DNA of 64,000 nt from an uncultured delta proteobacterium. GTDB taxonomy: Bacteria; Desulfobacterota; Binatia; Binatales; Binataceae. Positions 1,587 to 14,734 of the stretch are shown one piece after another (the stretch's first letter is position 1; every line of letters begins with the position of its first letter). The position numbers and the translations under genes were made by a program. The notes under the pieces are model-generated. The model was given only the letters and a program-made list of their open reading frames with translations, was not told the DNA's origin and did not search any database. The stretch covers positions 327,002 through 391,001 of the forward strand of contig CAWKCZ010000002.1 in the NCBI GenBank assembly GCA_963848285.1, read 5' to 3'.

Positions 1587-3794
1587 TTAGTGCGATGAAG
1601 GGTCGGGGTCGAATCCGTTCTTTTGTTGATCTGGAATTTCTGCTGGTTCCGCTGTCGGCGCCGTCGGCGATTCTTCGAGTGGCGCCACGGTTTCCTGCTC
1701 CGCATCGGCAATTTCTTCGCGATCGAGCAGCGCCGACATCTCATCGAGGTGCGCGCGGATTTTCATCGCCAGGTCGCGATTCATCCCTTTCACCTGCGCG
1801 ATGTCCTCGACCGTCGCGTCGCGGATGCGCCGCAGGCTGCCGAAATGGCGCAGCAGCGCGCGCCGCTTCACCGGACCGATACCCTCGATATCGTCGATGG
1901 CCGAGCGCAACCGCGCGCGCTTGCGCAATTCGCGGTTGTAGGTGATCGCGAAGCGATGCGCCTCGTCGCGGATGCGCACCAGCAGGAACAGCGCGGTGGA
2001 ATTTTTCGGCAGCACGATAGGGTCCTTGCGATTGGGCAGGAACACGCGCTCCTCGGATTTCACCACCGTCTCCTCGAGGCCATCGTTCAGGACGTGCTGC
2101 TTGGCGAGCGAGACCACATCGAGCTGGTCGAGCAGATTGAACTCGCTGCAGCACCTCGATCGCGACGTTGAGCTGACCCTTGCCGCCGTCGATGACCCAC
2201 AGGTCGGGAAATTCGTTTTCCGCAACCGCGCGCGTGAGGCGCCGCTTCAGCACCTCGTACATGCTCGCGAAATCGTCCTGGCCCTCGAAGCTGCGAATCC
2301 GGTAGCGCCGATAGAGGTCCTTGCGCGGCTCACCTTCATCGAAGGTGACCTGCGAGCCGACCACCATCGTGCCCTGCAGATTCGAAATGTCGTAGCACTC
2401 CATGCGCTTGGGCGTGTTCTTCAGATGCAGCTTGGTGCGAAGATCGTCGAGCATCTTCTCGCGCGTGACCTCGTTGTCGCGGCGCGAGGCGAAACTCTGA
2501 CGCGCATTCTCGATCGCCATTTCGAGCAGGCGCAGCTTGTCGCCGCGCTGCGGCACGAGGAACTCGACTTTCTTTTCGCGCTTCTCGGTGAGCAGCTCGG
2601 CGCGCACCTCGGCGTCCTCGAGCGCGACCGGCACGATGACCTCGTCGGGAATGTTGCGCGCGCCCGAGTAATACTGCGTGAGCAAATCGGCGAGCACGTC
2701 CTGGTCGGCGAATTCGAGGTCCTGGAAATCCCAGCTATGGGTGCTGGTCAGCTTGCCGCCGCGCACCATCAGCACGATCGCCTCGATGAATCCGCCCTCG
2801 CGATAGAGCCCGAAGACATCCTGATCGATTCCCCAATGATGCAGCACGGTCTGGCGCTCGACGGTCTTTTCGATCGCGCGAACGCGATCGCGCATGCGCG
2901 CCGCGTCTTCGAATTCGAGGCGGTCGGCATGCGCCTTCATCTGCTCGCGCATCTCGCGCAAGCAGCTCCAGGTTCTTGCCTTCGAGCAGCATCGTCGCAG
3001 CGTGCAGATGCTGCCCATACTCGTCGCGATCGACCGGCAGACAACACGGCCCGAGGCATCGCTTGATCTGATATTCGAGGCACGGGCGCGCGCGATTCTT
3101 GAATACCGCATCGGAACAGGTGCGGAGCGGGAAAACCTTGCGGATGACATCGATGGTTTCGCGCAGGCCATCCGCGGAGCCGAACGGACCGAAATATTTG
3201 CCGCCGTCCTTGATGATCTTGCGGGTCACCATGATGCGGGGCCACGCATGATTGGTGACCTTGGCGCTCAGGTAGGATTTGTCGTCTTTGAGGCGGATGT
3301 TGTAGCGCGGCTTGTACTGCTTGATGAGGTTGTTTTCGAGGATCAGCGCTTCTTTCTCACTGCGCGTCACCAGGGTGTCGAAGTCGCGCACCCGCCGCAT
3401 CAGGAAGCGCACCTGGAAGCGCTCGTCGCCGCCGTCGCGGAAATAGGCGCGCACGCGCGAGCGCAGCGACTTCGCCTTGCCCGACGTAGAGGACCTTGCC
3501 GCGCTTGTCCTTTAGAAGGTAGACGCCCGGCTCGGGCGGAATCGCATCGAGCTTGCGATCGATCTCGTCGGAGGAATCTCGGCTCCGGAGGTTTTTCGTC
3601 GGACCGCCGTGGCTCGCTCGGGATAACTCAACCAACGAGTCGAAGCGCGGACCCTCCGGAGTGGACGGGTCCGCCTCTGCCGAAATGGGCTCACGGCGCG
3701 GTCGGCTTTTCTCCTCCGCGATCAGAAAACCCTTGCCGGCGGCGCGGGTCATCATCTGCGCGCTGCGGCTGTTATTTGGCGTGAGCTTCGGCAT
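1587..3794 (-). CDS. uvrC: Excinuclease ABC subunit C, split over at least 4 frames; start uncertain
   Basis: GIY-YIG N-terminus PGVYLLKDKRGKVLYVG (ORF 3357..3794). LILENNLIKQYKPRYNIRLKDDKSYL and CLEYQIKRCLGPC (ORF 2735..3454). UVR and middle domain in ORF 1741..3171. C-terminal HhH segment IEGIGPVKRRALLRHFGSLRRIRDATVEDIAQVKGM (ORF 1587..2225). Confidence 0.9.
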
Positions 3795-3892
3795 TGGAGG
3801 GATTGATTATAGCATCCGATTCGAACCGTTACCCGCATCGCGCGATTCCTTGCTATTCAGAGGTTCAACTCGACCGATGAAGGAGACCTCCG

Positions 3893-4808
3893 ATGGGCAA
3901 GCTGGATGGAAAAGTTGCGGTTATAACCGGCGCTGCGAGCGGGATGGGACGCGCGACGGCGATCCGTTTTGCGCAGGAAGGCGCCGCAGTCGTCGTCGCG
4001 GACCTGAACTCGCAGGGCGGCGAAATGGTGGTATCGGAAATCGCCGCGGCGAAGGGACGCGCGGTTTTTCAGCGCACCGATGTGATCAGCGAGGACGACA
4101 TCAAGGCGCGTCATCAATCGCGCGGTGAAGGAATTCGGCCGCCTCGACATCACCTACAACAACGCCGGCGTCGGCGGCGCGACCGGAAGAATCGAGGACA
4201 TCAAATCCGAGGATTGGGACAAGACGTTCCACATCCTGACGCGCGCGGTGTTCCTCGGCATCAAGTATTCGGTCGCGCCGATGCGCAAGGCTGGCGGCGG
4301 CTCGATCATCTCGACCTCGTCGGTCGCGGGACTGCGCGGGGTCGCTGGATTGTGCGCCTACAGCGCGGCGAAAGCCGCGGTCATCAGCATCACCGAATCG
4401 GCGGCGATCGATCTCGGCCACGATCGCATCCGGGTCAACTGCATCTGCCCCGGCGGCATCGTGACGCCGCTGACGTATCGCGGGATGCCGGGCGGCGAGG
4501 AAGCCGCGGTGAAAGACATGGCGCGGATGCAGCCGATTCCGCGCGCGGGCAAGCCCGAGGATATCGCGGCGATGGCGTTGTTTCTCGCCAGCGACGACGC
4601 GGAATGGATTACCGGGACCGCGATGATCGTCGACGGCGGCATGGCGACCGGCAACTCGCGCATGAACCCAGTTCGGCAGCGGATTTTCCGGGCCGTCCTT
4701 CGAGCGCCGGCAACGCTAGCGAACGAAATACCATCGAGAGCCGGAGGACTCATGTCTTCCGGCTCTCGATTCTCACTAGTGCTGCATCTGCTTGATGTCG
4801 TCGAGTAG
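3893..4808 (+). CDS. Short-chain dehydrogenase/reductase (SDR), one frame change near 4100; true stop possibly earlier (~4717)
   Basis: KVAVITGAASGMGRATA is the TGxxxGxG motif (ORF 3893..4795). NNAG and STSSVAG...YSAAKAA (YxxxK) are in ORF 4125..4808. The last ~40 codons overlap convergent bcp and may be read-through. Confidence 0.8.
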
Positions 4809-5234
4809 TACCTTCTCGTGCCCCTGCGGATTCACCTTCTCATAGACCTTGCGCACGACGCCCTTGGGATCGATGACGAATGACGTACGGTCCCAGTATT
4901 TGTTGCCCTTGAACTCGCTCTGCCCCACCCCTGCGGCGCCTAGCAACTCGGCCTTCGGGTCCGCGAGCAGATCGATGGTGAAGCTGAACTTGTTGCAAAA
5001 GTTCTTATGCGAATCGACGTCATCCGCGCTCACGCCGAGCACCTTGATGCCGGCCGCATCGAAGTCCGATTTGGTCGCGGTGAACGACTTCCCCTGGATG
5101 GTGCATCCGGGCGTGTCGTCCTTGGGATAGACGTAGACCACCAGCCACTTGCCGGCGAAATCGCCGAGCTTCATTTCCTTGCCGTCCTGATTCTTCAGCG
5201 CAAAATTGGGAAAAGGTTTTCCTGTTTCCAGCAT
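4776..5234 (-). CDS. bcp: Peroxiredoxin, Bcp/PrxQ type
   Basis: Internal Met of ORF 4776..5342: MLETGKPFPNFALKNQDGKEMKLGDFAGKWLVVYVYPKDDTPGCTIQ, containing the PxxxTxxC peroxidatic-Cys motif. Confidence 0.85.
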   Translation of the reverse strand: MLETGKPFPNFALKNQDGKEMKLGDFAGKWLVVYVYPKDDTPGCTIQGKSFTATKSDFDAAGIKVLGVSADDVDSHKNFCNKFSFTIDLLADPKAELLGAAGVGQSEFKGNKYWDRTSFVIDPKGVVRKVYEKVNPQGHEKVLLDDIKQMQH

Positions 5235-5317
5235 CGACGCACCTGAGCCTTTCTCGCGAACGCGAGGTTGAATGTGAAAAGGAAGCGAGACTCGATAGTA
5301 CCCCAGTCGCGCAGCGC

Positions 5318-5461
5318 TCAGCCAGTGTGAGTCGAAATCCACCAGGTGTTGCCGAAGCTATCCTTCACGCCAAAAACGTCGCACACGAAGTCCGGCAGAT
5401 CGAGGTTCCCGTAGATGTAAGGTCGAACACTGCCTTTGCCATGACGAATGTGTTTGCTCAT
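5318..5461 (-). pseudogene. VOC-family remnant (N-terminal ~30 aa fused to C-terminal ~15 aa)
   Basis: MSKHIRHGKGSVRPYIYGNLDLPDFVCDVFG is joined directly to VKDSFGNTWWISTHTG. It has both ends of a VOC module but lacks the ~80-90 aa core. Confidence 0.55.
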
Positions 5462-5471
5462 ATGCCAATCC

Positions 5472-6846
5472 TCATTCGGCCGCTTCGAGGGGTTGCGTCG
5501 ACGCCACAACTTCCTCGACTTTCGCGGAAGTCGCGCGCGATGCGATCACGGTCGAGAGCATCACGATCACCGCGGCCAGCAAGTACGGCGCGCCCGGCAG
5601 ATGCCGGTCGCGATTCGGTCCGATGAAGCTGGCGAAAGTGGTCGTGAAAATGATCGGCCCGATCATGAACGCGATCCCACGGATGCTGCTCAGCGCGCCC
5701 TGCAACTGGCCCTGCTCGGTCTCTTTTACGCGGCGCGTCATCAGGCTCTGCATCGGAGGATTCGACAGGCCGCCCAATCCGCCGATCGGAATGCCGCTCC
5801 AGAACAGCAGGCCCGTCGGCGCGAGGCCATAAATGAAAAATCCCGCGACGTTGAACCACATCCCGCCGAGCATCACGCGCCGATCGCCGAACTTCGCGAC
5901 CAGCGGCTGCACCATGCCCGCGCCGACCAGCGCCGAGCATACGCCGACGGTGGCGATCGCGAGGCCGATCGTGCGCTCGTTCCAGCCGTAGCGATACATC
6001 GCGTACAGGACGAAGGTCGTCGGCAGCGCCTCATGCGCGATGCTGCTGAGAAAGTTCACCGTCGACAGCCCGAACAGCTCCGCATGCGAGCGCAGCAGCT
6101 TGATCGATCCCATCGGGTTGGCGCGCTGCCAACTGAACGCCTCGCGCCGATCGCGCGGCAGCGATTCCGGCAGCACGAACAGCCCGTACATCGCGTTGAG
6201 CAGGCTGAGTCCCGCGGCGACCCAGAACGGCAAGCGCGGATCGATGTTGCCGAGCACGCCGCCCATCGCGGGGCCGAGCACGAAGCCGAGTCCGAACGCC
6301 GCGCTGATCATGCCATAGCCGGCGGCGCGCTTCTCGGGCGGCGCGACATCGGCAATGTAGGCGCTCGCGGTCGAGAAGCTCGCCGCGGTGATGCCCGAAA
6401 TCACGCGGCCGACGAACAGCCACCAGACGGTCGGCGCCAGCGCCATCACGATGTAATCGCGCGCCGAGGCCGAAGTTGGACAGCAGGATGACCGGGCGGC
6501 GTCCGAAGCGATCGGAGAGCGCGCCCAGCACCGGCGAGAAACAGAACTGCATCGCCGCCCACACCGTCGCGAACAGGCCGACGTATTCGGCGGCGCGCGC
6601 GGTGTTGCCGTGCATGAAGTCCTCGACCAGCTTCGGCAGCACCGGCACGATCATGCCGAGCGCGAGCATATCGAGCACCACGGTGATGAAGATGAAGGCG
6701 AGCGCGGCGCGCCGCGGCTCCGCTGCGCAGTCGCCGTTCAGCTCATCGCTCTCATGCCGCACGCTACCTTCTTTCGCGTCTGACGCTTCGGTCGCGAGGC
6801 TCTTCTCTTCGTCGCGAGGTTCGACATGCTGCGCCGCTTCGTTCAT
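5472..6846 (-). CDS. MFS transporter, TetA/TCR-like efflux pump, one frame change near 6470
   Basis: N-terminus in ORF 6031..6846 carries MFS motif A (LGALSDRFGRRPVILLS). Twelve-TM-like remainder in ORF 5472..6449 (WWLFVGRVISGITAASFSTASAYIADV...). Confidence 0.8.
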
Positions 6847-7222
6847 CGCCGACGGCAGTGCGCCCGCCGAGCCGCTTCGGCGCCGACATCAGGTAGCCGT
6901 CCTTCAAAATCCCCGCGACCTCATCCCAATTGACTTTGTAGTCGAGGCGCACGCCGACCCATCCTTTGGGCCCCATGTAGGGCGGAATGAAAAAGCGCTT
7001 TCGCATCCGAGTTGACGAGAATCTCCTGCACCATCGGCGGCGCCTTCACCCATACCGCGACGTGCCCGCTGCCATGATGATTGTTGTCGGTCATCGCGAA
7101 CATGCTGCCGCCGGTGACGCGAAAGGTGCACTCGCCCCACGCCTCTTTTTCGAATGCCTCGGGCAGCGCGAGGCAGACCTCGCGCAGCCGCTTCAGCGCG
7201 GATTCGAATCGTCATACATTCG
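6764..7222 (-). CDS. MmcQ/YjbR-family protein, about 2 frame changes; ends approximate
   Basis: Reconstructed FESALKRLREVCLALPEAFEKEAWGECTFRVTGGSMFAMTDNNHHGSGHVAVWVKAPPMVQEILVNSDAK (ORF 6921..7103 plus upstream frame). Then RFFIPPYMGPKGWVGVRLDYKVNWDEVAGILKDGYLMSAPKRL (ORF 6764..7006). Confidence 0.6.
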
Positions 7223-7244
7223 TGGATGCGCCATCGAAATGTCC

Positions 7245-8292
7245 TCAGACTCGCTCGCCTTCGATGATACTCAGCCGCGCGGGCGTCGGAACAATCCTCG
7301 TAAGCTTGAACCCCGCGGCTGCGTAGAAGCGAGCGGAACTCCGCCTCGGAGCGCTGCCGGCCGCCGGTGCAGACCAGCATATTGACGTCGTTGGCCGCGG
7401 CGCCGCGCGCACTATCCGATTGATCGACGCGTGCGGGATAAACGCCCTCGGCAATGAGCAGTTTGCCGTGCGGCGGCATCGCGCGATGGATGCTGCGCAA
7501 AATCGCGGTCGCGCGTTCGTCGTTCCAGTCGTGGATGACGTGCTTGATGATGTAGGCGTCGGCGCCTGCCGGCACTTCCTTGAAAAAGTCCCCCGCGATC
7601 GCCTCGCAGCGCGACTGCAAGCCGGCCTCGGCGATTTTCGCGCGCGCCTTTTCTGCTGCATGCGGCAGGTCGAAAACGATTCCGTGCAGATGCGGATTGG
7701 CCTTCAGAATCCCGATCAGCAAAGAGCCGTTGCCGCCCCCGACATCGACGAGCTTACCGAAATGGCGAAAAATCATACGATGCGGCGATCGCGGCCGCGG
7801 TCATCGGCGCGAAGGTCGCCATCGCTTCGTCGAAGACTTCTCGCCTGCTCCGGATCATCGCCGCGATCGAACGCGAACGCGTCGGCATCGGGCGAATTGC
7901 GGCGAAACGCCGGCTCTCCGGTTTGCACGCAATACTCGAGTTCCTTCCACGAATCCTGGATCGCCGACGCCCGGCGAACAATTGCACCGAGGATCGCATC
8001 GAGCCGGGCACGCCGGTGCGCAGCAACTCGCCCATCGGCGTCAGCGCGAAGGTGCCGTTCTCGCGCTCCTCGAAAACGCCGACGCTCGCGAGCAGCCGCA
8101 TCACGCGATTGAGCGACGGCCATGGGTGCCGGTCGCTTCGCGAGGTCGTCGTAGCTGACGCGGGCCATCTTTCAGGCAGATCGGCGACGCCCAGCTTCGC
8201 GGCCAGCGCGAGCGCGCGCGAAAAATAGTGCCCGATCGCCGATTCGATAGAGCGCGAGCCCAGGCGGCTCGCCGATCGGTTGCGATATTTTG
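7245..8292 (-). CDS. Class I SAM-dependent O-methyltransferase (Methyltransf_2 / plant-type OMT family with N-terminal dimerisation domain), at least 3 frame changes
   Basis: LVDVGGGNGSL, AYIIKHVIHDWNDERA and GKLLIAEGV are in ORF 6904..7776. N-terminal wHTH part RVMRLLASVGVFEERENGTFALTPMGELL is in ORF 7754..8104. C-terminus AAGFKLTRIVPTPARLSIIEGERV is in ORF 7245..7661. Confidence 0.8.
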
Positions 8293-8700
8293 CGTTTCCA
8301 TAATGTCACTCACTTCGCGGCCTTGATAGGTCGCGATCCACCAGGTGTTGCCCGAAGTATCCTTCACGCCGCCGACGCGATCGCCCCAGGTCTCGTTCGA
8401 CCGGCTCGCGCACCGATGTGGCGCCGAGGCTCGAGCGCTTTCTTGTAGGTCGCATCGACATCGGGAACGTAAAGGTAGATCGCGGCGGCCATCGAGGAAT
8501 CGGTGAAGTAGCCGTTGCCGAGCAGCAGATGCGCGTCGCCGATTTTCGCCTCGGCGTGAAAGTTCCCGCGCCGTCGGGCGTCGGCGGATGCGTAACCTCG
8601 GCGCCGAAAGCGTTCTTGAGAAATCGAGCAGCTCGAGTTTCCCGAAGAGGTACGGCGTAATGGCGGTGAAGCCTTCCTGGATGTATTTTGTGTTGCTCAT
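8293..8700 (-). CDS. VOC-family protein, module A (frameshifted; 3' end uncertain)
   Basis: MSNTKYIQEGFTAITPYLFGKLELLDF and GDRVGGVKDTSGNTWWIATY (ORF 8101..8700). FLKNAFGAEVTHPPTPDGAGTF and LGATSVREPVERD (ORF 8306..8794). Confidence 0.65.
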
Positions 8701-8709
8701 CGGAGCTCC

Positions 8710-9190
8710 TCAGCTCGGGTTGACCATCGCCTTGAAACGTTTCTGCATTTCCTCGGGCGAAACCTCTTCGATCCGCATCGAAAGATCCCAGCAATGCCCC
8801 GACGGATCGCGCACCTGCGCGTTGCGGTCGCCATAGAACTGATCCTCGGGCTCGCGCAGCGAGGTCGCACCGGCCGCGAGCGCGCGCTTATACACCTCGT
8901 CGACATTTTCGACATAAAGATGGATCGAGACCGGCGAGCGCTTGCCGCCGAGCGATCTTGGGCGACACGAAACCCATTTCGGGAAATTCGTCGGCCAGCA
9001 TGATAGCTGCCGCCGTTGATTTTCAGTTCCGCGTGGCCGATGCGGCCGTCCGGGCTGTTTGAAGCGCATCGTTTCGGTCGCGCCGAAGACGTTTTTGTAG
9101 AAATCGATCATCTCGGCGGCGTTGCTGACGATCAGATACGGCGTCATCGCGGCACGCCCCGTCGGGAATGGGTTTGATTTTCGCTGGCAT
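8710..9190 (-). CDS. VOC-family protein, module B (frameshifted)
   Basis: ATG at 9190 is preceded by GGAGGA. AMTPYLIVSNAAEMIDFYKNVFGATETMRFKQP and VSIHLYVENVDEVYKRALAAGATSLREPEDQFYGDRNAQVRDPSGHCWDLS (ORF 8710..9402). Confidence 0.7.
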
Positions 9191-9211
9191 GATTTCCTCC
9201 TTGCGCTAGAT

Positions 9212-9632
9212 TTAGCTGCGCGAATGCGGCCGCGGCGCGTTTGCGAATTTCTTCGAGCGACAAATCTTCCTTGATGCGTCGCGATTTGCCAGATGTTGCC
9301 GAACGGATCTTTCACCGTGGCGCGCCGATCGCCATAGAACATGTCCGGCGGCTCCTCGATCGATCGTCGCGCCCGCTTCGAGCGCGCGCCGATACGCCGC
9401 ATCGGTGTCTTCGAGATAGAGATAGAGAAACGCTCGGCATCGCCTCGCGCACGCCGGCCTCGCTCACCATCACGATCGAATCGCCGATGCGAATTTCGGA
9501 TGGCCCATCGTCGCGATAAGTCGCCGGTCGCGCCGAAAGCATGCTTGAGAAACTCGACCAGCTTCGCGCATCGCTGACAAACAGTCGCGGCGTGATGCTA
9601 TGCCAGCCCTCGGGAACTGCTTTGACCGCCAT
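9212..9632 (-). CDS. VOC-family protein, module C (frameshifted; 3' end uncertain)
   Basis: MAVKAVPEGWHSITPRLFVSDA (ORF 9312..9632). C-terminus IEEPPDMFYGDRRATVKDPFGNIWQIATHQ (upstream part of ORF 8710..9402). Confidence 0.65.
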
Positions 9633-9647
9633 CGTCCTTCTCCATCG

Positions 9648-10100
9648 TCACTGCGACGCGCTTTTGAGCGGCGTCGCGATGTACCAGATGTGGCCGAACG
9701 GATCCTGCACCCCGCCGCATCGATCGCCCCACTCCTTGTCTGCCATCGGATCGACGACCTTCGATCCCGAATCGAGCGCGCGCTTGAACGCTGCGTCGGC
9801 GTCCGCGACGTAGATGTAGAGATGCAGCGGCGAGCCGCCGAAGTCGCGCGGCGTACCGGCGAATCCCTTCGCGCGATATTCCGCGGCATGCGGCGCGGTC
9901 GCGTCATCCAGCATCACGTGGGTCTCGCCGATCGCCATCTGGATGTGGCTCGGCTTGCCGTTCGGCTGCGTCACGCGATGCACCTCTCGTGCGCCGAAAA
10001 TCTTCTGGTACAACTCGAACGCCGCCTGCGGATCATCGTTGAACATGAACGGCATGATCGATCCGGGGCGCTGGCGAGGTTCGATCTCGCGCGGCGGCAT
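9648..10100 (-). CDS. VOC-family protein, module D (intact ORF; start may be Met at 10055)
   Basis: Uninterrupted 150-aa ORF: FMFNDDPQAAFELYQKIFGAREVHRV...HIQMAIGETHVML...LHLYIYVADADAAFKRALDSGSKVVDPMADKEWGDRCGGVQDPFGHIWYIATP. Confidence 0.85.
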   Translation of the reverse strand: MPPREIEPRQRPGSIMPFMFNDDPQAAFELYQKIFGAREVHRVTQPNGKPSHIQMAIGETHVMLDDATAPHAAEYRAKGFAGTPRDFGGSPLHLYIYVADADAAFKRALDSGSKVVDPMADKEWGDRCGGVQDPFGHIWYIATPLKSASQ

Positions 10101-10485
10101 CTTCGGCCGGAATCGTGAAATCGCGCAGATGCGTCGCGATGTACCATACGTTGCCGAACGGATCCTTCACGCCCGCATAGCGATCGCCATAGCCCGCGTC
10201 GACCGGCTCGTCGATGGAGATCGCGCCGGCCTCGAGCGCGCGCTGGTAGGTCGCATCGGTGTCGGGGACGTATGAGATGCAGCGCGGGCGGCATCGGCTG
10301 ATACGGCCCGTGCGCCTCGCCCATCGCGATGATCGAATCGCCGACGCGAATCTTCGCGTGATGGACACGCGCCTTCGGGGTCCTGATGGCGCTCAGACCT
10401 CCTCGGCGCCGAACGCGCGCTTGAGGAAATCGATCACCGGCGGCGCGCTCTTCGGATGCAGATACGGCGTGATGCTGTGCAGCTC
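10033..10485 (-). CDS. VOC-family module E (frameshifted); N-terminus in frame with the C-terminus of module F
   Basis: ELHSITPYLHPKSAPPVIDFLKRAFGAEEV (ORF 10393..10647). YVPDTDATYQRALEAGAISIDEPVDAGYGDRYAGVKDPFGNVWYIATH (ORF 10033..10368). Confidence 0.6.
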
Positions 10486-10921
10486 CTGCGGCGGCGGTTC
10501 CGCGTCCGCGCGATGGGTCGCGATGTACCAGTGATTGCCGAACGGGTCTTTCACGCTCGCCTCGCGATCGCCGTAGTCCTGGTCCGTCGGCTCATGAAGC
10601 GAGCGTCGCGCCCGCCTTGAGCGCGCGCGCGTAGGTCGCGTCGGCATCTTTCACGAACAGCCAAATCGCGGTCGGATTGGGCTGATACTTGTCGATCGCG
10701 TCGGCGACTTCGATCATCGAGTCTTCGATCTTCAGTTGCGCATGCGCGATTTCGTCGCCGCGCGGCACCCGGAAAATCTCCTCGGCGCCGAACGCATCGC
10801 GGAGGAACTCGATCAGCTTCGATGGCGCCGTTACCTGCAGATACGGCGTGATGCTGTGATAGCCCTCGGGCGCGCCCGCGGGCTCGGTCGCGAGGTTTCT
10901 TCGTGCGGGAGCGCTCTGCAT
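10486..10921 (-). CDS. VOC-family module F (one frame change)
   Basis: MQSAPARRNLATEPAGAPEGYHSITPYLQVTAPSKLIEFLRDAFGAEEIFRV...AHAQLKIEDSMIEV...WLFVKDADATYARALKAGA (ORF 10592..10921). HEPTDQDYGDREASVKDPFGNHWYIATH (ORF 10393..10647). Confidence 0.7.
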
Positions 10922-11622
10922 CTCGCTTCATCCACTCTTCCGCGCGACGCGTCATTTCATCCGGCGTCAGGTCTTCCTTGTGCGTCGAGACGATCCACAT
11001 ATGCCCGAAGGGATCCTGCAAGCGGCCGCTGCGGTCGCCGTAGAACTGATCGGCGATCGGGAAAATCACTTTCGCGCCCGCCGCGATGGCGCTTCTCCGC
11101 GAACGCGTCGACATCCTCGACATAGAGACCGATCGGAACCGTCGATCCGCCGAGCGACTGCGGGCTGCGATTGTAGTTGCCCGTGCTCCGGCGCGATATC
11201 GATCGGCGAATCGCCAATCTGGATCTGCGCATGAATGATGTTGCCGCTCGGATCGTCCAGCCGCATCAGCTCGGTCGCGCCGAAAGCCTGCTTTGTAGAA
11301 TTCGATCGCGCGCGGCGCATCGCGCACCACCAGGCAGGCATTCGCAGTATGAAAACCCGCCGGAATGTAGCTCGCCTTCTTCGCTGCACGGCGCCAGCGG
11401 CGTCACTCGCGCGACGAGATCCTTCTTGAGCCGCGCCTTGAAATCCTCGCTGGGCAGATCGCGCAGCTCCGACGCGATGCGCAGAATCGCGGCGATGCGG
11501 GAATTGACCCGCGGCAGCTTGCTTTCGCGATCGCTCATGATCTTATCGACCGCCTTGTCGAGCTGCTGCGCGAGCGGCGCGGGTTTGGCGATGCGCTTGC
11601 TCTTGTTGCTCGCTCGTTTCAT
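10922..11622 (-). CDS. VOC-family module G with a ~85-aa non-VOC N-terminal extension (frameshifted; 3' end uncertain); candidate anti-sigma partner
   Basis: The ATG at 11622 overlaps the sigma-factor stop (ATGA). N-terminus MKRASNKSKRIAKPAPLAQQLDKAVDKIMSDRESKLPRVNSRIAAILRIASELRDLPSEDFKARLKKDL (ORF 11266..11622). VOC part: FGATELMRLDDPSGNIIHAQIQIGDSPIDIAPEHG (ORF 11066..11389), GGSTVPIGLYVEDVDAFAEK (ORF 10957..11232) and AIAAGAKVIFPIADQFYGDRSGRLQDPFGHMWIVSTHKEDLTPDEM (ORF 10551..11330). Confidence 0.6.
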
Positions 11623-12185
11623 CGCTCACCCACCATCGTGCGCAGACTTTGCAGGCCGCGAAACTGAAGCTGCTTGATGGCGCCCTCGCTACGCCCGATG
11701 TCTTTGGCAATCTCGGCGATACTTTTCTGCTGTGCGAAACGCATGGTGATTACGCGGCGCTGATCGTCGGGAAGTTTCTCCACCAATTTGAACAGCCGCG
11801 CGCGATGCTCGACTTCCGCGAGATCGGCATCGTCTGGACGGATCCGTACTCGTGGAGCTCGCGCAGCTTGATCGCCTCGAGCTGGGCCGCGCGCTTGCCG
11901 CGATCGGCGATCGCATTGGCCGCGATGCGAAACAGCCACGCCGCAAACGGCGCGCCGCGCCATTCGAAGCGCGAAAGATTTTTCAGCGCGCTATGGAAAA
12001 CATCGGCGGTCAGATCCTGCGCCTGATCGCGATCGTGAACCCGCCGCGCGATGAAGGCATAGACGCGTTCGAAGTTGTTCTTCGTAGAGCTGGGCGAAGC
12101 AGGCGGGATCGCGCTGCGCGGCCTCGATCAAGCCGCGCTCCGGCGCATCCTTGGTTCGGCGCTTCAATGCAGGTTTCCCAGCCAC
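11619..12185 (-). CDS. ECF-type sigma-70 family RNA polymerase sigma factor (about 2 frame changes)
   Basis: Region 2: GLIEAAQRDPACFAQLYEE (ORF 11991..12185). My translation of the adjacent frame gives NFERVYAFIARRVHDRDQAQDLTADVFHSALKNLSRFEWRGAPFA. Region 4: LPDDQRRVITMRFAQQKSIAEIAKDIGRSEGAIKQLQFRGLQSLR (ORF 11619..11963). Confidence 0.85.
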
Positions 12186-12225
12186 CTTCGCCTCTAACTA
12201 TATAAACCGCCGGCGCGCGAAAAGG

Positions 12226-12254
12226 TTACGCGGCTTCGAAACCAGAGGTTTTCA
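12226..12254 (-). promoter_or_regulatory. Candidate ECF-type promoter upstream of the sigma gene (TGAAAAC-N17-CGTAA on the minus strand)
   Basis: Reverse complement of 12226..12254 reads TGAAAACctctggtttcgaagccgCGTAA. It lies ~40 nt upstream of the GTG start at 12185 and resembles AAC / CGT type ECF promoters. This is a single occurrence, with spacing one nt longer than the SigW-type consensus I remember. Confidence 0.25.
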
Positions 12255-12373
12255 ACGTTGCGGGTCGGCTGCGGTTTGTTATGAACATCCGACGCAGCGT
12301 TCAAAACGATGAAGCGGTAAGATTCACGTCGGGGTGCTCTCGCGTCTGATCGTCAGAGATGTGAGGATCACCG

Positions 12374-13102
12374 ATGCGCCGCATGACCGTCATCGTTTTC
12401 GCGCGCGAGCCGATCCCGGGCCAAACCAAGACGCGGCTCATCCCGGCGATCGGCAAGGACTATGCGGCCGCACTCGCCGATGCGTTCAATCGCGATGCCC
12501 TCGCGAAGGCCAAACGCCTCGCGCCCGCAGAATTGGTGATCGCAGGTAGCGCTCCCGGAGGCGCCAAGCGCAGCCGTTATTTCAAAACCCTCGCGCACGA
12601 ATTCGGCGCGTGGGTCTTCGAGCAGGGCACCGGACATCTCGGCGCGCGCATGGCTGCCGCGATGCGTCCGTTCACCAATGCCGGCGGCGCTTTGCTGATT
12701 GGCACCGATACGCCCTCATTGCCGATGAAGCTGCTGACCAAGAGCGCCGACCTCTTCGAGAAGCATCCGATTGTCATCGCGCCGACCCTCGACGGCGGCT
12801 ACTACCTCGTCGCTATGCGCGGGAAGCTGGCCGACATCTTCAAGCCGATGCCTTGGGGCGGTCCGGAGGTGCTCGCGATCACGTTGCAGCGTCTGCGCGA
12901 TGCGGGAGAGCCCTACTGCCTCGGGCCATGGTGGTACGACGTCGATCGGCCGATCGACTTGCAGTTTCTCATCTCGCATTTGAAGAATCGGGTAAGCGCC
13001 TTCGGTGGCCAGGCGATGGCACTCGGATCGCCGCACCCATGCCCTGCGACCGCCGCTTTTTTGAAACGCCTCGAAAAACAAACGCCGCGTCGAGTCGCTT
13101 GA
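12374..13102 (+). CDS. DUF2064 / TIGR04282-like glycosyltransferase (arsenosugar-associated family)
   Basis: Intact 242-aa ORF: VIVFAREPIPGQTKTRLIPAIG...GALLIGTDTPSLP...APTLDGGYYLVAM...PWGGPEVLAITLQRL, the typical DUF2064 pattern. Confidence 0.75.
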   Translation: MRRMTVIVFAREPIPGQTKTRLIPAIGKDYAAALADAFNRDALAKAKRLAPAELVIAGSAPGGAKRSRYFKTLAHEFGAWVFEQGTGHLGARMAAAMRPFTNAGGALLIGTDTPSLPMKLLTKSADLFEKHPIVIAPTLDGGYYLVAMRGKLADIFKPMPWGGPEVLAITLQRLRDAGEPYCLGPWWYDVDRPIDLQFLISHLKNRVSAFGGQAMALGSPHPCPATAAFLKRLEKQTPRRVA

Positions 13103-13781
13103 AGCTGTCGGTCATCGTCCCGATGTTGAATGAGGCCGCTGCGATTAGCGGCGACCCTCGAAGCGATCCGTACCGGCGCCCGCGAAGCGGAAATAATCGT
13201 AGTCGACGGCGGCAGCACCGACGCCAGCGTCGATGTGGCGCGGCCGCTATGCGATGTGCTCATCGAATCCTCGCGCGGGCGCGCGCTACAGATGAATACC
13301 GGCGCCGCGCGCGCCTCAGGTGACGTGCTGGTCTTCGTGCATGCCGACACGATTGTGCCGCTGACCTTCGGGCGCGATATCGAAACCGCGCTCGCAGAAC
13401 TCGCAGTCGTAGGCGGCCGCTTCGATGTTAGCCTCGACGACAATCATCCTCTGTGCGTGCTGATTGGCGCGCTGATCAGCCTTCGTTCGCGCATCAGCCG
13501 CACCGGTACGGGAGATCAGGCGATTTTCGTACGGAAGCATACCTTCGAGGCTCTCGGCGGATTTCCCGATATGCCGATTTGCGAGGACCTCGATTTCGCG
13601 CGCCGGATGAAACGCGCCGGCCGCGTCGCATGCCTGCGCAGCCAGCGTGATTACCTCGGCGCGGCGATGGCGCAAGGGCGGCATCATGCGCACCGTGCTG
13701 CGGATGTGGACGATTCGATTGTTGTATCTGGCGGGCGTTTCGCCGGTGCGCCTCGCGCGCATGTACTCCGACGTTCGATGA
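13099..13781 (+). CDS. GT2-type glycosyltransferase, TIGR04283-like (about 2 frame changes)
   Basis: TTG at 13099 overlaps the upstream stop. KLSVIVPMLNEAAAI (frame of ORF 12610..13323). EIIVVDGGSTDASV, RGRALQMNTGAARASGDVLVFVHADT and TGDQAIFVRKHTFEALGGFPDMPICEDLDFARRMKRAGR (ORF 13130..14074). The third frame gives VITSARRWRKGGIMRTVLRMW, ending at TGA 13779..13781. Confidence 0.75.
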
Positions 13782-13783
13782 TC

Positions 13784-14734
13784 TCAGGCGAGCGCGCCGG
13801 AGCAACTCGAACCCGCGCCCGCCGTACATCCGAAGCAATGCGAGCCGGTTGCGATGCGCGCGCCGCTCAACTCGCCCAGATCGTTGATATCGAAAATCGT
13901 CAGCGCGCGACCGTCGTCCGTGGACAACGGCATCCCGAGCATCTGATTGAAATCGCAATCGTAAAGCGTGCCCTCGTAGCCGACGCTCACCAGGTCGCGG
14001 CACATAACGGTCGAAACCGTCGTAGGATTGAAATGATTCACCAACAGCGCCATGTAGTCTCGATCGCTCCCTGAATGCCGAAGCTGATCGGCGAAGCGCT
14101 TGATCGGCATGTTGGTAATGGTGAGCAGATGGTTGAACTCGATGCCGAAACCGTCGCGCAGCTCCTGACGATAGCGCGCTTCCAGTTCGGCCTGCGCGGG
14201 CGGCAGAAACGCGAACCGACTGGATTGTAAACGAGGTCAAGAACCAATTCGCTCCCCGCCATCCCATAACCAAGTCGATTCAAGACGCCGGAGCGCCTCG
14301 ATGCTTTTCTCGAAGACTCCCCGCCGCGTTGTTTGTCCACATTCTCGGCCGTGTAGCACGGCAGTGAGCAAACCAAGTTAGCGTGATGCTCTCGATAAAA
14401 TGCAGGCAGCCAATCCATACCCGGCTGAAAGATGACTGTGAGATTGCATCGTACGATGACATCACGTCCCAGCCGGCGCGCCGACTCGACCAGGAATCCA
14501 AAATGTTCGATTCAACTCTGGCGCGCCGCCGGTGATGTCGACGATTTCGATCGACGGGCTATGCGCGAGCAACTCGATGACTCGCTCGGCCACCCGCGAA
14601 TCCATCTTCTCGGTGCGCGCCGGACCCGCATCGACGTGGCAATGATGGCACGCCTGGTTGCACACCTTGCCGACATTGACCTGCAGCGTGCGCGGCGCGA
14701 CGCGCGTCAGCGGCGCGAGACCATGACGCTGCAA
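13784..14734 (-). CDS. arsS: Arsenosugar biosynthesis radical SAM protein ArsS-like (at least 3 frame changes)
   Basis: LQVNVGKVCNQACHHCHVDAGP holds the CxxxCxxC cluster motif at 14639..14662 (ORF 14462..14734). PCYTAENVDKQRG (ORF 14038..14418). C-terminus VSVGYEGTLYDCDFNQMLGMP...IATGSHCFGCTAGAGSSCSGALA (ORF 13784..14110). Confidence 0.8.

Follow-up and report, generated by a model that had tools for sequence, protein, structure and literature searches.

A conserved head domain paired with a BldN-like ECF sigma factor: a candidate soluble anti-sigma factor carrying four VOC modules in Binatia

The window, by which we mean the whole stretch of 64,000 nucleotides that was analyzed, carries on its minus strand a gene for an ECF sigma factor, directly followed by a gene for a protein that begins with a head of its own kind and continues into VOC modules. 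The open reading frame downstream of the sigma gene starts MKRASNKSKRIAKPAPLAQQLDKAVDKIMSDRESKLPRVNSRIAAILRIASELRDLPSEDFKARLKKDLVARVTPL. The features of the locus are listed in Table 1.

Table 1. Features of the sigma-head locus in window coordinates
Feature	Position	Strand	Details
ECF-type promoter CGTAAC-N16-GGTTTA	12203..12230	-	-35 at 12230..12225, -10 at 12208..12203
ECF sigma gene	11619..12185	-	GTG start at 12185, TGA at 11621..11619; ~187 aa
ATGA overlap of sigma stop and partner start	11619..11622	-	Partner ATG is 11622..11620
N-terminal head, residues 1-76; proposed anti-sigma domain	11395..11622	-	Family profile and AF2
Disordered linker and VOC module 1	10925..11394	-	PF00903 at residues 93-205 of the orthologue
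VOC modules 2-4, same protein	9648..10921	-	Stop at 9650..9648
VOC modules 2, 3, and 4 individually	about 10921-10500, 10485-10120, and 10100-9651	-	PF00903 stretches
Co-directional block downstream	5530..9640	-	Three single-module VOC genes, O-methyltransferase, YjbR, MFS transporter

The overlap of the sigma stop with the partner start, to which the preliminary description of this DNA had drawn attention, is seen on the minus strand at 11619..11622. The same 4-nt overlap occurs at L014, L016, L098, and L125, the Binatia loci whose junctions were read, and one of 8 nt (ATGCCTAA or ATGGCTAG) is present in 74 of 79 GTDB-species loci, mostly from Acidobacteriota. When overlaps of any length are counted, 76 of the 79 GTDB-species loci having upstream sequence have kept one, and so the ATGA overlap in the window is not due to chance. 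The 8-nt junction, which lies near positions 3001-3008 in loci L050-L128, shows far stronger conservation than the codons adjacent to it. The frame offset is conserved as well; no locus with sigma and head in one frame was found among those examined. A CGGN four-letter reading that would link the sigma and head frames was dropped as artificial, and no suitable locus for it was found.

Reading frames in this part of the window are heavily interrupted, with at least 13 frame breaks within 9650-12190, and nearly every gene within 5000-14500 is affected. Alignment of the window DNA with two same-genus relatives placed extra single bases in the sigma gene (12082, 11847, and 11833), in VOC1 (11290, 11177, and 11091), at the VOC1/VOC2 boundary (10925), and in the VOC2-4 part (10604, 10394, 10368, and 10273). 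The head and VOC1 are themselves split by a frame change near 11396, where there is one extra base in a linker of variable length; this is the frame change that had been reported between head and VOC domain, and it is present as described, although as an artifact that it shares with many further insertions. So many breaks could be taken to mean that the frame breaks are real and that the locus is a decaying pseudogene array in which no functional sigma factor or partner is made. We regard that as highly improbable, however, since the indels called against both relatives are all single-base insertions, bar one in-frame 3-base difference, and each frame segment is 80-97% identical in amino acid sequence to intact orthologues. 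Over 5.5-12.2 kb, moreover, about 45 one-base insertions stand against about 14 one-base deletions (three same-genus relatives, ~6.8 kb aligned), and the assembly, although it consists of only 7 contigs, scores just 69% "complete". The stretch from 5000 to 14500 therefore looks like insertion-prone, unpolished assembly and not like gene decay, and the broken frames are treated here as assembly errors, of which single-base insertions are typical.

A corrected gene model follows from the relatives. The orthologue of the head protein is a single open frame of 649-656 aa, made up of the head and four VOC modules, in six same-genus genomes; these six proteins are 80-87% identical to the stitched window sequence, and relatives at the family level have 627-695 aa. 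The intact orthologue P0001 has 651 aa, and the sigma factor encoded next to it, P0002, is likewise intact, with 187 aa and the ATGA overlap. In public records the orthologues are called "PhnB protein" or "VOC family protein", with Candidatus Binataceae given as one of the sources. The proposed fusion of the head to a VOC domain thus stands, but not its restriction to a first module, since the intact frame has four; the possibility that the extension and the VOC domain were separate genes falls away, because the relatives have them in one open frame.

The four modules correspond to four PF00903 stretches in P0001 (182 bits in total), which places them in the VOC superfamily. They are modeled by AF2 in the full-length protein with pLDDT values of 85-98, and Foldseek returned VOC matches for them. 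Module 1 is closest to TioX (3ITW; 40.5 bits), with a per-module TM of 0.76 and an rmsd of 3.0. Close relatives differ in module number, from two to about seven, as in P0005, P0007, P0052, and P0206 (361, 488, 502, and 878 aa, against a usual length of ~650), and this variation suggests that VOC modules are often gained and lost via recombination between repeats. Downstream, the window is colinear with locus L014 over 5530-12232, and the intact orthologues at L014 have Pfam matches to PF00903 (three times), PF00891, PF04237, and PF07690. Together with the sigma gene and the gene for the head protein, this set looks like a response for binding, modifying, and exporting a small toxic molecule.

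The head comprises ~76 non-VOC residues, somewhat fewer than the ~85 first estimated, and the Pfam Glyoxalase match begins at about residue 93-96. It contains neither Cys nor His and therefore has no HxxxCxxC motif, and no Pfam zf-HC2 match was obtained. The head protein also lacks a transmembrane helix: the highest 19-residue hydropathy is 1.1 in the intact orthologue, compared to 2.1 for the membrane helix of a relative of the TonB_C type. On both of these points the preliminary description was correct. The layout of the head is a basic tail followed by amphipathic helices at residues 17-30, 41-54, and 59-73, with the motif LRDLP-x3-F-x3-L-x3-L. Conservation is concentrated in the hydrophobic faces of the helices (L21/A24/V25/I28; I43/I46/L47/A50/L53; F61/L65/L69) and in the turn LRDLP.

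Modeled alone from 76 diverse sequences, the head was predicted by AF2 as three helices with a pLDDT of 74 and a pTM of 0.45, values that convey moderate confidence only. The three helices recur in the model of the full-length protein at a pLDDT of 50-65, and linker residues 71-81 fall below 50. In this model the disordered linker sets the three-helix head apart from the well-folded VOC modules, so that no packing of the head against them is predicted. Neither the window copy nor the orthologue nor any of 21 family members gave a match to the head in Pfam or NCBIfam at E<=10. A search of every PDB chain sequence with the head profile (E<=10) retrieved four unrelated chance chains, and the RsbN chain of 6DXO was not among them. 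Foldseek with the head-alone model returned nothing below E = 4.8 and no anti-sigma structure, although such an isolated model may differ from the bound state. [quoted passage not shown]

A profile built from 14 heads and run on 1.84 billion representatives matched 308 representative proteins at E<=0.001, with a matched core of ~57 residues located at or near the N-terminus. As judged by these matches, the head is a real protein family, one that Pfam and NCBIfam do not contain. What follows the head varies: 2-7 VOC modules, one or two cupins, cupins together with VOC, or a membrane helix and TonB_C. The TonB_C form accounts for at least 3,462 proteins, most of them named "energy transducer TonB". 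Within the family, a head with a membrane helix and TonB_C, in Acidobacteriota, is the commonest form, and the window protein is a soluble variant. The exchange can be seen within Binatia alone: some genera have four VOC modules behind the head and others have two cupins, and the sigma factor upstream is the same throughout. A constant module combined with variable sensor or anchor domains, as expected of the partner in an anti-sigma pair, is thus what the head family presents.

Whether homologues of the extension lie beside ECF sigma genes was a check that the preliminary description had proposed. In Binatia and Acidobacteriota they do so at 112 of 113 loci, the exception starting at a contig edge. 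At all 30 Binatia loci identified with the head profile, the end of the sigma gene, an orthologue of P0002 (58-85% identical), coincides with the start of the head. A sigma orthologue (50-88% identical) is directly upstream on the same strand at 79 of the 80 GTDB-species loci, mostly Acidobacteriota/Terriglobia, and all three loci of the TonB_C type have the same sigma upstream (53-60% identical), with the same overlap and promoter. Because flanking genes differ at the latter, the sigma factor and the head protein are the only conserved unit there. A survey of 301 Binatia genomes, in which sigma orthologues were accepted at E<=1e-35, found the head in 37 genomes, all but one of which also have the sigma orthologue (36 genomes); the head of the odd genome is at a contig edge. 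The partner gene therefore both adjoins the ECF sigma gene and is co-transcribed with it, as is required of an anti-sigma pair. Distances among sigma factors and among heads are correlated (Mantel r = 0.80), which is expected of any two linked genes and is given no weight, because linked genes share their phylogeny.

Several individual loci deserve mention. One Binatia genome, G090, has two sigma-head pairs (C31:383325-384054 and C14:519390-520132), with head proteins of 629 and 432 aa, and such paralogous pairs in one cell would need mutual insulation. The loci of the TonB_C type are L130, L132, and L134 (gene at 3001-4074 or 3001-4101), together with the P0118 family. Members of the P0118 family, which go by the names "energy transducer TonB" or "TonB family protein", have the same head, a single membrane helix, and TonB_C, and their appearance is that of membrane anti-sigma factors, not of TonB energy transducers. 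At L098 (CAVVEB010000007.1), the sigma factor is 88% identical to P0002 and the head protein has an N-terminus of the Binataceae type, and the label "uncultured delta proteobacterium" attached to this locus is probably an outdated taxonomic assignment.

The sigma factor has Pfam matches to Sigma70_r2 and r4 only and is a minimal ECF protein of 180-187 aa with no regulatory extension. Its best NCBIfam match is TIGR02952, the BldN family, at 134.8 bits, which is below the cut-off of 206.45, and the closest PDB chain is BldN in 6DXO, at 81.6 bits. On these scores we describe the sigma factor as BldN-like and not as a BldN equivalog. The promoter agrees with this relationship: the motif CGTAAC(C/T)TTT-N12-14-(C/G)GTT(T/A)A is kept upstream of the orthologous sigma genes in Binatia and Acidobacteriota, and the BldN promoter motif, CGTAAC-N16-CGTTGA, resembles the CGTAAC-N16-GGTTTA of the window (PMC2375139), as do ShbA/SigD sites (PMC12019637). 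Only a single copy of the motif in its stringent form is present in the 4.7-Mb genome from which the window comes; each of four same-genus genomes likewise has one copy, which lies at this position every time. Since it is found once per genome, at the sigma gene itself, the regulon probably consists of this operon only, which would make it unusually small, and the operon is probably autoregulated.

Considering these observations together, we think it likely that the head is the sigma-binding domain of a noncanonical soluble anti-sigma factor that would inhibit the paired BldN-like ECF sigma. This reading draws on the strict one-to-one co-occurrence of the head with a minimal ECF sigma to which it is translationally coupled, on a head that stays constant as the C-terminal part is exchanged (VOC, cupin, or membrane helix with TonB_C), as in anti-sigma architecture, and on the commonest form of the family, in which a head, one membrane helix, and a periplasmic domain follow each other. 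Also in its favor are the tethered head of the full-length model, the control of BldN by the three-helix domain of RsbN, the single promoter per genome, and the likeness of VOC1 to TioX. Against it stand the empty searches of PDB sequences, the RsbN chain included, and of structures by Foldseek, as well as the moderate confidence of the head-alone model. An anti-sigma role for the extension had been put forward in the preliminary description, and the pairing and the exchange of C-terminal parts lend it support; the "first VOC module" fusion has had to be given up. Physical binding and inhibition of the sigma factor by the head are what we infer from these sequence relationships.

The following course of events would, in our view, best account for the locus. 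The BldN-like sigma factor would be transcribed from its own CGTAAC-N16-GGTTTA promoter and translationally coupled to one soluble protein of ~650 aa, in which a flexibly tethered three-helix head of ~75 residues precedes four VOC modules. The head would bind the sigma factor and keep it inactive, and the VOC modules would take the place of the membrane and periplasmic part. Binding of a ligand to the VOC modules would then free the sigma factor, which would turn on only its own operon: the sigma gene, the gene for the head with four VOC modules, three VOC genes, the O-methyltransferase, YjbR, and the MFS pump. The VOC modules are plausible as a ligand sensor that releases the sigma factor because of the analogy to the cupin of ChrR, the TioX-like module, and the neighboring methyltransferase and pump; that ligand binding is the releasing signal is the more speculative part of the scheme, argued from analogy.

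The proximity of the two genes has other possible explanations. In an autoregulated operon, the first gene would lie beside the sigma gene in any case. The head might be just an N-terminal segment of that gene, the first that the sigma factor transcribes, serving oligomerization, targeting, or stability, and the sigma factor might be controlled solely through transcription of its own gene or else by an unlinked factor. Such a segment would hardly be expected to behave as the head does, however. It stays with the sigma factor while VOC, cupin, and membrane helix with TonB_C are swapped behind it, it is gained and lost jointly with the sigma factor across the 301 genomes, and it forms with the sigma factor the only conserved unit at the loci of the TonB_C type; a targeting tag, in particular, is not expected to follow one sigma orthologue so strictly. 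We therefore consider a role unconnected with regulation unlikely. The strictness of the association does not by itself give the sign of the interaction, as one-to-one co-occurrence and translational coupling would suit any obligate partner. The head could in principle bind the sigma factor and act positively, as a co-factor, tether, or chaperone for its activity or stability, and here the fold class of the head, which was matched to no known structure (Foldseek; AF2 pTM of 0.45), leaves some room. The succession of head, membrane helix, and periplasmic domain is, on the other hand, the architecture of an anti-sigma factor, as in RsbN, and we know of no ECF system that requires a co-transcribed N-terminal helical partner for activity. 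A positive partner thus seems to us very unlikely, and inhibition of the sigma factor by the head remains the reading that we prefer.

A wider and more tentative proposal is that the head may be an unrecognized anti-sigma domain, either a fourth class or a distant and widespread relative of the RsbN class III, whose partners would be a group of BldN-like ECF sigma factors found in Acidobacteriota and Binatia by the thousand; in its soluble VOC and cupin forms it might sense a small molecule directly, so that the protein sequestering a toxic compound would be the switch of its own operon. We regard this as possible, though not yet as probable. Pairs of ECF sigma and anti-sigma factors are a major form of bacterial signaling. 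Our searches of the literature for anti-sigma factors linked to VOC, glyoxalase, or TonB_C domains, or for an ECF group having them, returned nothing relevant, the ECF classification being covered through its main text. The curators of that classification note that soluble anti-sigma factors unlike the known ones are probably being missed (PMC7826278). As it stands, a domain of ~60 residues that is absent from Pfam and NCBIfam follows one sigma orthologue without exception in two phyla of soil bacteria that are abundant and for the most part uncultured. If this is an anti-sigma domain, thousands of entries that now go under "energy transducer TonB", "PhnB", or "VOC family protein" would be misdescribed, and the BldN-type branch of sigma factors would gain a family of partners outside Streptomyces. 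The VOC array would then be a new kind of anti-sigma sensor, in a switch of one promoter and one operon that is testable and reusable.

Comparison with known systems brings out both shared and divergent features. ChrR of Rhodobacter sphaeroides, whose complex with sigmaE has been solved (PDB ID 2Q1Z), is a soluble protein in which a class I zinc anti-sigma domain is fused to a cupin sensor. The window protein, too, is proposed to be a soluble anti-sigma factor that binds its sigma through the N-terminus and has a domain of small-molecule type at the C-terminus, and some Binatia relatives of the head have two cupins in place of VOC modules. Unlike ChrR, however, the head has no HxxxCxxC motif, no Cys or His, and no Pfam zf-HC2 match, and it is predicted to have three helices and not four.

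For the VOC part, the nearest counterpart is the thiocoraline-binding protein TioX (3ITW), one of the VOC-fold antibiotic-binding proteins. VOC module 1 of the window protein is like it in sequence and in modeled structure, and the neighboring O-methyltransferase, YjbR, and MFS pump would fit a drug response. The arrangement differs from that of TioX in that four modules are joined in one chain behind an anti-sigma-like head.

The head itself is also found at the front of the Acidobacteriota "energy transducer TonB" proteins of the P0118 family, which score 63-77 bits against the head profile and have the same sigma factor, overlap, and promoter. They differ from the window protein in having a membrane helix and a periplasmic TonB_C domain in place of VOC, and their public name covers only this C-terminal domain.

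[quoted passage not shown] Its anti-sigma domain is N-terminal and consists of three helices with flexible linkers; a single membrane helix comes next, and then a domain on the outside. RsbN has been reported as restricted to Streptomyces. The window protein departs from it in being soluble and in having VOC modules, and the head profile did not retrieve RsbN at E<=10. The TonB_C-type relatives of the head, on the other hand, share the RsbN layout of three predicted helices, a membrane helix, and an outside domain. The head of the window protein is likewise predicted to have three helices, with packing of low confidence in the AF2 models. On the side of the partner, BldN is the nearest solved relative of the window sigma factor, and the promoters of the two are alike.
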